A program made the translations under genes and the position numbers. The notes under the pieces are model-generated. The model ran no database searches and had not been told where the DNA came from. It worked only from the letters and a program-made list of their open reading frames with translations. Shown piece after piece: positions 55,851 to 59,506 of a stretch of DNA of 64,000 nt. The stretch is from Candidatus Latescibacterota bacterium (GTDB taxonomy: Bacteria; Latescibacterota; UBA2968): NCBI GenBank assembly GCA_965205975.1, contig OZ242195.1, positions 3,200,001-3,264,000 of the forward strand, given 5' to 3'. How positions within the stretch are numbered: position 1 is the stretch's first letter; each line of letters opens with the position of its first letter.

Positions 55851-56846
55851 TCAACGCATTTTTAACATCCGATTGATCTCTGCCCCATTCAACTTTCTTT
55901 CAAAACGCGGACCGTATTTGGCGACAACGCGCGAGGAAACATAAGTCGCGAGCCTCGCGGCCTGAGCCGCGTCATACCCCCGGGTCACGGCAAACAAATA
56001 CGCCCCGGCAAAAGAATCCCCCGCGCCATTGGTATCCACAGCATCTACCACAAAACCCGGCGCGTGAAATACATCACCACCATCGCAGACCCGGGCACCG
56101 TCTGCACCATACGTCAGAGCCAAACCACCTACGCGATGGCGCAACGCATCAAAAGCCTCTTCCGTTGTCTCGGCACCTGTAAATATCCTGCCCTCATCCT
56201 CATTGCAAAACAGCATATCCACGCCCGCATCGACCAATGCCGTCATTCTATCCTTAAAAGCAGCCACAATAGACGGATCGCTCAGGGTAAGCGCGACCTT
56301 TGTACCGTGCGCCTGCGCCACCTTTTGCGCCGCCTGTGCCGCTTCAAAGCCATCATCTGCCGCAATTAGATAACCCTCAATATAAATATACTGGCTGTCG
56401 GCAATCACACCATCCTCAACCTGCGCCACACCAAACGTACTCGTAATCCCCAAAAATGTATTCATCGTGCGATCTGCATCCTCCGTAATCATCACCAGAC
56501 ACTTGCCCGTAACCCCTTCCCCGCGATGTGGCGGATTGCACGCCACCCCCGCAGCACTGAGGTCGCGAAGATAAAACTCGCCATCCGTATCCTCAGCCAC
56601 CTTGCATCCGTAATATCCTTGTCCACCACAATTGGCCAACGCGATCATCGTATTGGCCGCCGAACCGCCCGATGAACGCGCCATCTCTTTCCCGCCCAAA
56701 GCATCGATCAACGCGCGCTGGCGATCTCCGTCAATCAACGTCATCACACCCTTGTCAATCCCCATCGCCTCAAAAAACGACGGATCAACCCGAAACTGAA
56801 TATCCACCAGCGCATTGCCCAGTCCATACACATCGTATTGACGCAT
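55851..56846 (-). CDS. PfkB-family carbohydrate kinase (adenosine kinase-like)
   Basis: GNALVD, GGSAANT, NEDE, DTNGAGDSFAG. Confidence 0.9.
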   Translation of the reverse strand: MRQYDVYGLGNALVDIQFRVDPSFFEAMGIDKGVMTLIDGDRQRALIDALGGKEMARSSGGSAANTMIALANCGGQGYYGCKVAEDTDGEFYLRDLSAAGVACNPPHRGEGVTGKCLVMITEDADRTMNTFLGITSTFGVAQVEDGVIADSQYIYIEGYLIAADDGFEAAQAAQKVAQAHGTKVALTLSDPSIVAAFKDRMTALVDAGVDMLFCNEDEGRIFTGAETTEEAFDALRHRVGGLALTYGADGARVCDGGDVFHAPGFVVDAVDTNGAGDSFAGAYLFAVTRGYDAAQAARLATYVSSRVVAKYGPRFERKLNGAEINRMLKMR

Positions 56847-57077: not shown

Positions 57078-58388
57078 CTATGGATGCAACCTGTTGGGCG
57101 TGCGGGACAAAAAGGTCGTCTCGCGCACAGAGGACAAGTCGAGCATAACCATGAGCAGGCGCGACAGGCCAAAACCAAATCCCCCGTGCGGAGGACATCC
57201 GTACTTAAAAAAATCGAGATAAAACTGGATAACCTCTAAATCCAGCCCCTTCTCTCTCGCCTGCGTCCTCAGAACATCGGGACGGTGTTCGCGTTGCGCC
57301 CCTGTGGTAATTTCCACACCGCGATAGAGCAGGTCAAAACTCCTGGTCAACTCAGGATATTCTGGATGACGCATATGGTAAAATGGCCGCACAGACACCG
57401 GGTAGTCTATCACAAAGACATAATCGCATCCCCGGGTCTTGCGGATATATTCACCCAGCAGACGCTCGCCCTTTGGATCGAGATCGCCTTCCCGCTCTGG
57501 CGCGTGGCCCTGTTCGGACAACACCGCCAATGCCTCGGCCATCGCGATCCGCGGAAAAGGCAGCGCTGGCACCGCGAGTTCAACATCGTAATTTTCGGCA
57601 ATCGCGTCACCGTATGTCTTTCCCGCACAGCATAAATGACATGCTGGAGCCATTGCTTCTTCAAATGCCATCACATCCTCGTGACTATCAATCCATGCGA
57701 TCTCGACATCCACACTGGTAAACTCCGTCGTATGGCGCGAAGTAAATGAGGGATCGGCGCGAAAAACGGGCGCAATCTCAAACACGCGATCAAAACCAGA
57801 CGCCATCGCCATCTGTTTGTAAAACTGGGGCGATTGCGCCAGATAGGCCGTAGAATTGAAATACGGCAGCGCAAACAACTCAGCCCCCGATTCACTGGCA
57901 GTACCCATCAGTTTTGGGGAGTGGATTTCGATAAAATGATTCCGCATCCAGTACTCGCGCATCGCCATTTCAACAGCAGTCTGTATCTCAAAAATCAACC
58001 GATTGCTCGGAACGCGAAGATCGAGATGTCGCCAATCCAGCCGATGATCTATACCCGATACATTTTCGGAAAACGGATCCAGAGGCAACGGCGATTCAGC
58101 TACATTGACGACACTCAGGCCCTCAAGCTGAATCTCAACACCCCCCAGACGAACACTGGGATTTTCTACAACACGTCCACTTATGGATATCGCCGATTCT
58201 CGCGTAAGAGCCGAAACCCGCTCAGCCAACGCCCCTGTCTTTTCGTGAACAACCTGTACACTTCCCGTGCGATTTCTCAAAATGAGAAACTGGACATGCT
58301 TTTGGTCGCGCAGGGCATGCACCCATCCCTGAAGGGTAACGGTTTGGCCGATATATTTGGACAGTTCAGATATTGCAATGTATTTCAT
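57078..58388 (-). CDS. aspS: Archaeal-type non-discriminating aspartyl-tRNA(Asp/Asn) synthetase
   Basis: 436 aa, no GAD insertion; OB-fold GWVH..RD, LAQSPQFYKQ, FRA...RH..EF, GAQREH, PPHGGFGFGLSR, RLHP. Confidence 0.9.
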   Translation of the reverse strand: MKYIAISELSKYIGQTVTLQGWVHALRDQKHVQFLILRNRTGSVQVVHEKTGALAERVSALTRESAISISGRVVENPSVRLGGVEIQLEGLSVVNVAESPLPLDPFSENVSGIDHRLDWRHLDLRVPSNRLIFEIQTAVEMAMREYWMRNHFIEIHSPKLMGTASESGAELFALPYFNSTAYLAQSPQFYKQMAMASGFDRVFEIAPVFRADPSFTSRHTTEFTSVDVEIAWIDSHEDVMAFEEAMAPACHLCCAGKTYGDAIAENYDVELAVPALPFPRIAMAEALAVLSEQGHAPEREGDLDPKGERLLGEYIRKTRGCDYVFVIDYPVSVRPFYHMRHPEYPELTRSFDLLYRGVEITTGAQREHRPDVLRTQAREKGLDLEVIQFYLDFFKYGCPPHGGFGFGLSRLLMVMLDLSSVRETTFLSRTPNRLHP

Positions 58389-58411
58389 GACAGACTCCTT
58401 TTATTTCAGGT

Positions 58412-58485
58412 AATGTGGAACAGATGCTTCGACTCCGTTTCACTCCGCTCAGCATGACAAACACCCAGACCTGCGTAACGTCAGT
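58412..58485. mobile_element. MITE copy 3, internally deleted and inverted
   Basis: One intact TIR TGCGTAACGTCAGT plus half of the internal palindrome; flanked by CAGGT at 58407-58411 and 58486-58490. Confidence 0.7.
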
Positions 58486-58492
58486 CAGGTAC

Positions 58493-58528
58493 AAAAAAAG
58501 CCCGTTGTCGAAAAATACGACAACGGGC
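58493..58528 (-). terminator. Attenuator terminator upstream of aspS
   Basis: GCCCGTTGTCG-TATTTTT-CGACAACGGGC-T7, perfect 11-bp stem. Confidence 0.9.
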
Positions 58529-58557
58529 ACTATACTCTAATACTGGCACAAAACGAC

Positions 58558-58656
58558 CTATGCCGGTCCAGCCCGTCGCCGGATCGGATTATTATCGTCA
58601 TTATTATTGCCAGTAAACTGAGCGATTTGGAAATAGCGTATATGCATGGTATTCAT
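58558..58656 (-). CDS. Asn/Asp-rich leader peptide (32 aa) of aspS
   Basis: Manual translation MNTMHIRYFQIAQFTGNNNDDNNPIRRRAGPA*; below the ORF-track length cutoff. Confidence 0.8.
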   Translation of the reverse strand: MNTMHIRYFQIAQFTGNNNDDNNPIRRRAGPA

Positions 58657-58676
58657 CCAAAAAATTATTAGATATT

Positions 58677-58763
58677 GGGGTGGCTTGGTGGGGTTCGTCT
58701 ATGAACTGGCCTGAGAAGCGACCAGTTGTACCCCGCTCCGTCTATTCGTCTATTCGTCTATTC
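58677..58763 (-). repeat. GAATAGAC array element (inverted) interrupted by a GAACTG hairpin element
   Basis: GGGGTTCGTCTAT[GAACTG...CCCCGC]TCC(GTCTATTC)3. Confidence 0.8.
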
Positions 58764-58771
58764 GTGATTTT

Positions 58772-59506
58772 TTAAACTTTTCTCCCGCCAAAAACAGCGA
58801 GTTCAAACAGCTTGAAATAACAATCTACATCTGAAAAACCAATAGCTCTGAGCCATTCGCATTGATCTTCAACAGACGCGAGAATATTCGCCTGTTTATC
58901 ATCGCGATAATAATAAGCCCGCGCGATTTCATCGCGAGATGCATTTGGATCTCGCTGCGTCACAGAATCGTAAAGCGCGTCAATAAAGCGATCTGCAAAA
59001 CGCGACTCAACCCACTTCGACGGAGAGCGGACATGCTCGACATTGACAAACACGCCATTGGGAGACAGCAGATCAAAAATCTCGCCATAAACCTCGCGCT
59101 TGCGTTCATCGCTCTGATGATGAATTGAAAAACCCGATACAATCGCATCATAAGGCGCGTCATCTGCAACCAGACTGAGCCAATCGGACGTCGCATAATC
59201 CCCAATAACAAAACGATGCTGTGACGCCGTTCCCCCAAACCGCTTCCGCGCAGCCTCAATCATAGCCTCAGAAAAATCCACAAACACACCGCGTGCATCC
59301 GGGTGGTATTCAATAACCGCAGCACCGAGTATGCCATCCCCACACCCCAGATCCAGAACAGTATTGACCCTGTGATCATCCGCATTGATCACCCGACACA
59401 TAACGGCAATCTGCTCATCGGACAGCGGAATTGCCTGCCGAATATTTTTCAAATATTTCTGCGCCAGATCCCGCGCCTGCCAGGCAGTGTCTTTGCGTTT
59501 GCTCAT
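58772..59506 (-). CDS. Class I SAM-dependent methyltransferase
   Basis: VLDLGCGDG, YDAIVSGFSIHH. Confidence 0.9.
   Translation of the reverse strand: MSKRKDTAWQARDLAQKYLKNIRQAIPLSDEQIAVMCRVINADDHRVNTVLDLGCGDGILGAAVIEYHPDARGVFVDFSEAMIEAARKRFGGTASQHRFVIGDYATSDWLSLVADDAPYDAIVSGFSIHHQSDERKREVYGEIFDLLSPNGVFVNVEHVRSPSKWVESRFADRFIDALYDSVTQRDPNASRDEIARAYYYRDDKQANILASVEDQCEWLRAIGFSDVDCYFKLFELAVFGGRKV

Follow-up and report, generated by a model that had tools for sequence, protein, structure and literature searches.

Leader-peptide attenuators are textbook devices for tryptophan, histidine, phenylalanine, threonine, leucine and isoleucine/valine. The classical cases are trpL, hisL, pheL and thrL, together with pheM, which precedes pheST. 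A leader can also act through its nascent chain, as TnaC does when it senses tryptophan in the ribosome tunnel. The principle of leader-peptide attenuation is laid out in the available text of PMC1183508. A search of full-text literature and Rfam returned no description of an Asn or Asp leader attenuator, including an Asn-codon leader before aspS, and a motif in the aspS 5'-UTR of Shewanella is listed only as a 'tRNA synthetase leader' in the available part of PMC2659441.

A second body of work concerns arrest peptides. According to the accessible passages of PMC12992588 and PMC10987492, the SecM arrest motif ends in the core RAGP, which can also bring about arrest elsewhere and ranks among the most avoided tetrapeptides of bacterial proteomes; in YwcI it stalls the ribosome while Gly occupies the P site. 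Passages of PMC12992588 define the core of this class as R-A-G-P or RAPP/RGPP, with Arg and Pro indispensable. YwcI lies upstream of sacT, so the class is not confined to Sec/YidC surroundings (PMC10987492, in the text available). Among the literature matches listed, there is no case of an arrest peptide joined to an intrinsic terminator.

The locus described here lies on the minus strand of a 64,000-nucleotide stretch of a Candidatus Latescibacterota bacterium genome (the window). It is very probably a leader-peptide (ribosome-mediated) transcription attenuator controlling aspS2, the gene of a second, archaeal-type non-discriminating aspartyl-tRNA synthetase (AspRS2). A run of cognate codons, an intrinsic terminator and a mutually exclusive antiterminator (the last by predicted folding) are all present, arranged as follows:

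58656-58558, minus strand: leader ORF of 32 codons plus stop, encoding MNTMHIRYFQIAQFTGNNNDDNNPIRRRAGPA, with codon-frame conservation and linkage to AspRS2 in relatives
58608-58588, minus strand: putative regulatory run NNNDDNN (5 Asn and 2 Asp codons)
58587-58564, minus strand: codons for PIRRRAGP, the peptide end with its SecM-type RAGP core
58581-58571, minus strand: antiterminator strand CGGCGACGGGC, within the Arg-Arg-Arg-Ala codons
58560-58558, minus strand: leader ORF stop codon
58528-58518, minus strand: terminator 5' arm, common to terminator and antiterminator
58510-58500, minus strand: terminator 3' arm, preceded by a 7-nt loop
58499-58493, minus strand: U7 tract of the intrinsic terminator
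58615-58608, minus strand: 5' strand UACUGGCA of a long-range helix (anti-antiterminator) in the minimum free energy (MFE) fold of the untranslated leader
58548-58541, minus strand: 3' strand UGCCAGUA of that helix, in the same MFE fold
58388-57078, minus strand: aspS2, archaeal-type non-discriminating aspartyl-tRNA synthetase, 436 aa, the putative regulated gene

An earlier, sequence-only reading of this DNA had described a minus-strand ORF with seven consecutive Asn/Asp codons, a perfect terminator between it and aspS, and an exclusive antiterminator formed by its Arg codons. The coordinates of the ORF are right, and the terminator is where it was said to be: its stem is a perfect 11 bp followed by U7, starts 29 nt past the leader stop codon, and is predicted at -20.2 kcal/mol as a bare hairpin and -21.4 kcal/mol when evaluated inside the 164-nt leader. 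The antiterminator pairing also holds, joining 58581-58571 to the terminator 5' arm over 11 bp (2 G-U) at -18.7 kcal/mol, and it covaries among relatives. The 171-nt leader fold has a z score of -5.2 against shuffles. Across the genome (5.56 Mb) an N/D-rich segment occurs in 14 short ORFs, and a terminator follows just one of the 14, the aspS2 leader. This single terminator-linked N/D ORF, the fold score and the conservation of the unit together indicate more than chance. Two scans of the genome, for RAGP near a stop codon and for an N/D run plus terminator, found no second copy. A T-box or other known Rfam leader was considered and rejected: at E values up to 10, Rfam gives four sub-threshold matches (best 19.5 bits against a gathering score of 70), and these are look-alikes of the terminator hairpin. 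A promoter scan yielded one sigma-70-like match, inside the leader ORF, a count not above that in shuffles.

The leader start common to relatives is the second ATG, at 58647. A convincing Shine-Dalgarno sequence is absent from the window's own leader, a caveat that the earlier reading had already attached to this copy. Eight of ten leaders outside the window's genus carry an SD-like purine stretch (GGAG in six, AGGA and AGAG in the other two) ~8-11 nt upstream of the conserved ATG, which in these leaders sits 33-36 codons 5' of the Ile codon. The Asn codons of the window's leader are the common AAT, which makes up 61% of Asn codons in the long ORFs of the genome, so that no rare-codon effect is expected. 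In a codon table of 21 distinct leaders, conservation tracks the codon frame, 138 of the 147 cells for the seven run codons contain N, D or H, and the Asp codons occupy fixed positions within the run. The order and length of the run vary among lineages while its Asn/Asp richness is kept. His codons occur in the runs of five leaders of a sister family, four of these in two genera; in three leaders of family f2 (L100, L102 and L103) many Asn codons are replaced by His, as in DHHNNHHD. Codons for Asn, Asp, His and Tyr are all of the form NAY and are all decoded by queuosine-bearing tRNAs, and the replacement may be connected with wobble modification. The His codons of the sister-family runs are not accounted for by an Asn/Asp sensor.

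Leader ORF and terminator lie 5' of aspS2 at 24 of the 30 AspRS2 loci examined in the phylum Latescibacterota, spread over three families, and the N/D run is thus conserved in orthologous leaders, a comparison that the sequence-only reading had proposed. These 24 leaders consist of an N/D(/H)-rich run, PI(R/Q)(R/Q)RAGP, 1-4 further codons, a stop and a terminator. Two loci have degenerate N-rich leaders, and their aspS2 genes contain in-frame stops; the leader is absent from four, of which one gene lies directly behind another gene and three are distant (~40% identity). Among 80 AspRS2 loci in genome_contigs, an N/D-rich upstream ORF is found at three, all labelled Latescibacterota, and at none of the other 77 (Anaerolineae, Solirubrobacterales and others). 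Most matches of a loose DNA motif pattern run over 168 genomes were due to chance in GC-rich DNA, and among the 30 loci it returned, true leaders overlooked by the protein search were found only in G045 and G074. A tighter pattern applied to metagenome contigs gave nine matches, one of them true (L153, with leader, terminator and AspRS2).

Several loci depart from the common arrangement. Genome G074 has an orphan leader and terminator (L144) from which aspS2 is deleted, in the same neighbourhood as the window's, and in G045 an intact leader (L127) precedes an aspS2 split into several frames; these two loci point to recent loss of the gene. Tandem attenuators occur upstream of aspS2 at L107 (G037), L108 (G040), L110 (G069) and L111 (G067), where a first N-rich leader with its own terminator and a plain stop, lacking AGP, is followed by a second leader-terminator unit.

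Covariation was assessed over 24 aligned leaders, of which 23 are distinct. In these 23 sequences pairing reaches 97.6% in the terminator, 5 of whose 11 pairs are changed on both sides, and 95.3% in the antiterminator (leader columns 37-47 against the 5' arm), which has 2 compensatory pairs; sliding the antiterminator by 1-3 columns lowers its pairing to 30-58%. Exchanges of G-C to A-U and of A-U to G-C in the antiterminator go with Arg-to-Gln codon changes, at the first Arg in one family. The terminator thus differs by lineage and the Arg/Gln codons of the leader change with it, so that the antiterminator stays 95% paired. The independent lineages are few, the compensatory pairs number only two and kinship inflates the shuffle test, so the antiterminator covariation is supportive rather than conclusive. 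The check on terminator/antiterminator covariation suggested by the earlier reading nevertheless comes out in its favour, both helices covarying across the 23 sequences. That reading had also noted the match between UACUGGCA and UGCCAGUA, which is present in the window and turns out to be lineage-specific: 50.5% of cells are paired clade-wide. Across the clade this helix does no better than shuffles, and it was dropped as a conserved element.

Folding with ribosome footprints was modelled in 12 representative lineages, the nascent RNA being taken before the terminator 3' arm exists. With the ribosomal A site at run codons -9 to -4, the antiterminator (10-13 bp) is the predicted MFE structure in 12/12 lineages, and with the ribosome at the leader end (RAG/P) the terminator forms in all of them. 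Both conformations, whose folding had been put forward as a check, therefore give attenuator behaviour in every lineage modelled. In full-length RNA the terminator is still the most stable fold when a ribosome is stalled in the run, so read-through would have to be kinetic, as in other attenuators. The naked RNA behaves differently among lineages. In the window's, the antiterminator strand is buried in long-range structure (-43.9 vs -33.9 kcal/mol), so that absence of translation would also result in termination; such an anti-antiterminator is predicted in only 4 of the 12 lineages. The naked RNA folds into the antiterminator in 8/12, and there only a parked ribosome would permit termination.

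The predicted folds suggest how the switch could work. A shortage of Asn-tRNA(Asn) or Asp-tRNA(Asp) would stall the leader ribosome in NNNDDNN, leaving the strand 58581-58571 free to pair with the terminator 5' arm while the latter emerges, and with the antiterminator formed RNA polymerase would continue into aspS2 (the ON state). When charging is good, the ribosome would reach the end of the ORF and cover 58581-58571, and the terminator at 58528-58493 would stop transcription (the OFF state). In untranslated window RNA, the antiterminator strand would be locked in the long-range structure, again leading to termination. Conservation, covariation and the masked folds all support this core proposal of the sequence-only reading, a ribosome-mediated Asn/Asp attenuator. 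Sensing of Asp besides Asn is plausible, given the fixed positions of the Asp codons; that the attenuator also reports on GatCAB activity is something we only infer.

The gene downstream is well defined. It starts at 58388, ~100 nt beyond the terminator, with an AAAGGAG Shine-Dalgarno sequence before it. Its product scores 487.9 bits against NF003483 (the aspartate--tRNA(Asn) ligase equivalog, cut-off 353) and 389.7 bits against TIGR00458 (cut-off 368); exceeding both cut-offs marks it as a probable archaeal-type, non-discriminating AspRS, the identity that the first reading had given it. That reading had also expected asnS to be absent, and this was wrong, as the genome (one 5.56-Mb contig) encodes an AsnRS scoring 493 bits, above cut-off. 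As for the expected GatCAB, gatB is present (565 bits). The genome also contains a GlnRS (706 bits), an AspRS of the bacterial type (594 aa) and a tRNA-Sec gene; for this set, with AsnRS, bacterial-type AspRS and GlnRS alongside GatB, the coordinates given are C1:1487138-1488409, 1833475-1835118 and 1068288-1069862.

Since asnS, glnS and a bacterial-type aspS are all present, the aspS2 product is a second, accessory enzyme and not the only route to Asn-tRNA. No asnA was found in the genome, and no asnB above cut-off (best match 119 bits against 267). In Thermus and Deinococcus, a second AspRS and GatCAB make asparagine on tRNA, as described in the available text of PMC4206432. The genome's own tRNA-Asn(GUU) has U1-A72 and its tRNA-Asp has G1-C72, in keeping with the rule, given in passages of PMC1635274, by which bacterial GatCAB amidates Asp on tRNA-Asn and not on tRNA-Asp. 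With AsnRS, GlnRS and GatB present and neither AsnA nor AsnB above cut-off, AspRS2 most likely feeds tRNA-dependent asparagine synthesis, by analogy with Thermus and Deinococcus, and the element would in effect be an asparagine-biosynthesis attenuator. Of 168 genomes examined in the phylum, 33 have an AspRS2 match at E<=1e-80; for the genus the figure is 14 of 21. In these 21, AspRS2 and AsnB occur together in 1, AspRS2 alone in 13, AsnB alone in 3 and neither in 4, which is a trend and not a clean complement. Because AspRS2 is missing from seven congeners, four of which also lack AsnB, it is not the sole asparagine route in the group.

Two repeat families occur around the unit. One, of ~70 nt and with ~15 genome copies, separates the terminator from the aspS2 Shine-Dalgarno sequence at 58415-58485; of 14 leaders in the genus, just those of G000, G073 and G081 have it, and the spacer there goes from ~90 to ~170 nt. 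The second, which BLAST matches 25 to ~250 times in the genome, adjoins the leader on its upstream side at 58705-58768 and contains tandem GACGAATA units. Downstream of aspS2, after 231 nt, comes a PfkB-family sugar/nucleoside kinase gene (55851-56846, minus strand), for which all matches are below cut-off (best ribokinase, 87 bits). RNA data come from four metatranscriptome runs of one study, in the form of contigs from which ends, strand and level are not readable and which may include DNA. Contigs over the leader span 58543-58702 in X1 and X4, 58573-58693 in X2 and only 58634-58693 in X3, and almost none fall on the aspS2 body, with the same limits on ends, strand and level. High contig depth at 58392-58478 and 58653-58826 stems from the repeats, the second family accounting for the depth at its own position.

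The end of the leader peptide, PI(R/Q)RRAGP, is a feature that the sequence-only reading, correct about the N/D run, had overlooked. Across the 21 distinct leaders, five residues never change (Ile, the third Arg, Ala, Gly and the final Pro), and the first Pro is present in 20. At the five invariant residues the codons vary in third positions only, and all four codons are used for Ala and likewise for Gly. Conservation collapses just past the final Pro, which is followed by A, W, I, N or K. Third-position-only variation and conservation ending at Pro indicate selection on the peptide. The core R-A-G-P itself is present in 21/21 distinct leaders with synonymous variation. Among the genome's own ORFs of at least 250 aa, RAGP is the most depleted of the 24 R/A/G/P orderings (9 seen vs 36.9 expected), and RRAGP is seen 0 times against 2.6 expected.

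Could the peptide end be the real lock of the OFF state? As RAGP matches the SecM-type arrest core, a ribosome stalled on it may hold the switch off. A ribosome at RAG/P would cover the antiterminator strand exactly; under arrest it would be held there with Gly in the P site and Pro in the A site, and termination would become a robust default. That RAGP acts as an arrest core in this leader is quite possible, judging from the sequence, and somewhat short of probable. We hold with similar reserve the fuller model of a hybrid switch in one 30-codon leader, in which the hungry-codon run gives ON, RAGP arrest on the antiterminator strand gives default termination, and arrest replaces the anti-antiterminator hairpin in most lineages. 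The gene downstream encodes an AspRS, and the Sec/YidC linkage of the RAPP-like class is not found here.

The simpler account is a classical attenuator and nothing else: the run senses charging, RAGP causes no arrest, and the ribosome just reaches the nearby stop. A stop codon lies 1-4 codons past RAGP in 23 of 24 leaders, so a terminating ribosome would mask the antiterminator strand too. The upstream tandem copies would operate with just a plain stop, and AGP is absent from them as from the degenerate leaders; moreover, most RAPP-like motifs of ordinary proteins did not arrest when tested, as the available part of PMC10987492 reports, and RAGP by itself is often insufficient. What this account leaves over is the peptide. 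Ala, Gly and Pro are invariant with free third positions, and conservation ends exactly at Pro, so that AGP would have to be kept for slow Pro decoding, release kinetics or an unseen RNA contact. A hairpin formed locally by the PIRRRAGP codons was considered as the cause of AGP conservation and rejected, since it is without covariation and two of its pairs are broken in all 8-9 sequences outside the genus. The strong depletion of RAGP in the genome's ORFs also speaks against a motif without effect, as does the one leader without any stop codon (L108), which stays open past RAGP through the terminator to the aspS2 start, though the missing stop could be a sequencing error in that assembled genome. 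On balance a purely classical attenuator seems unlikely, if still a serious contender.

Two further explanations dispense with codon sensing or with regulation altogether. The leader might be an arrest-peptide regulator whose N/D-rich stretch is a sensing nascent chain, the codons themselves not being the sensor. The conservation of the peptide end at the amino-acid level would suit such a regulator, and the presence of His in the run of one family is not what a pure codon sensor would lead one to expect. The run, however, changes its order and length among lineages and keeps only its Asn/Asp richness, the geometry of hungry-codon stalling fits in 12/12 lineages, and the putatively regulated enzyme would make exactly both aminoacyl-tRNAs that read the run codons, all of which leaves this explanation very unlikely. 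Most improbable is a chance ORF, devoid of any regulatory role, beside the ordinary terminator of the upstream methyltransferase gene. The terminator does lie downstream of a same-strand gene, and the window's leader lacks a clear Shine-Dalgarno sequence; yet the terminator sits 244 nt beyond the stop codon of that gene, the leader and terminator covary, and the unit moves with AspRS2 across three families while the upstream gene differs. The attenuator remains the preferred reading, and the element would link a spare non-discriminating AspRS to the availability of Asn-tRNA.

Such a link argues, from regulation, that these bacteria and others like them use their second AspRS for asparagine biosynthesis. 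If the hybrid reading is true, this would be the first attenuator for asparagine, governing tRNA-dependent asparagine synthesis, and the first arrest peptide coupled to an intrinsic terminator. If RAGP truly arrests, SecM-type cores would serve outside protein export, an attenuator could be locked off by arrest in place of an RNA hairpin, and the arrangement would offer a compact design for synthetic control circuits. It would also be relevant to those searches for arrest peptides that have so far been limited to sec and yidC surroundings.

Compared with the classical attenuators, the element has the same plan: a short ORF with a codon run cognate to a pathway product, a ribosome whose position would decide the fold, and an intrinsic terminator with an exclusive antiterminator overlapping the 3' part of the ORF. 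The gene under control encodes an aminoacyl-tRNA synthetase, a point shared with pheM-pheST. Unlike the classical systems, its regulatory codons are for Asn and Asp, the gene it would control encodes an accessory AspRS of the archaeal, non-discriminating type, only 4 of 12 lineages have a predicted anti-antiterminator, and the end of its peptide is conserved as protein.

With Thermus thermophilus and Deinococcus radiodurans, as described in the available text of PMC4206432, the genome shares AsnRS, GlnRS, GatB and two AspRS, one of the latter archaeal-type and non-discriminating, with neither AsnA nor AsnB above cut-off here. It differs in having a probable attenuator on aspS2, of which there is no mention in that text, and some congeners are without AspRS2, so that the route is not universal in the group.

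The leader also resembles SecM, ApdA, ApdP, ApcA and YwcI, as presented in passages of PMC12992588 and PMC10987492, in being a small upstream ORF with a conserved C-terminal core. That core, R-A-G-P, is the very sequence with which the SecM arrest motif ends, its Arg and Pro are invariant, and, as in arrest peptides, conservation stops at the Pro that would occupy the A site. Unlike SecM-type peptides, the aspS2 leader is not linked to Sec/YidC genes and bears no sign of a secretion signal; its output would be an intrinsic terminator rather than the exposure of a ribosome-binding site, and a hungry-codon run is added.
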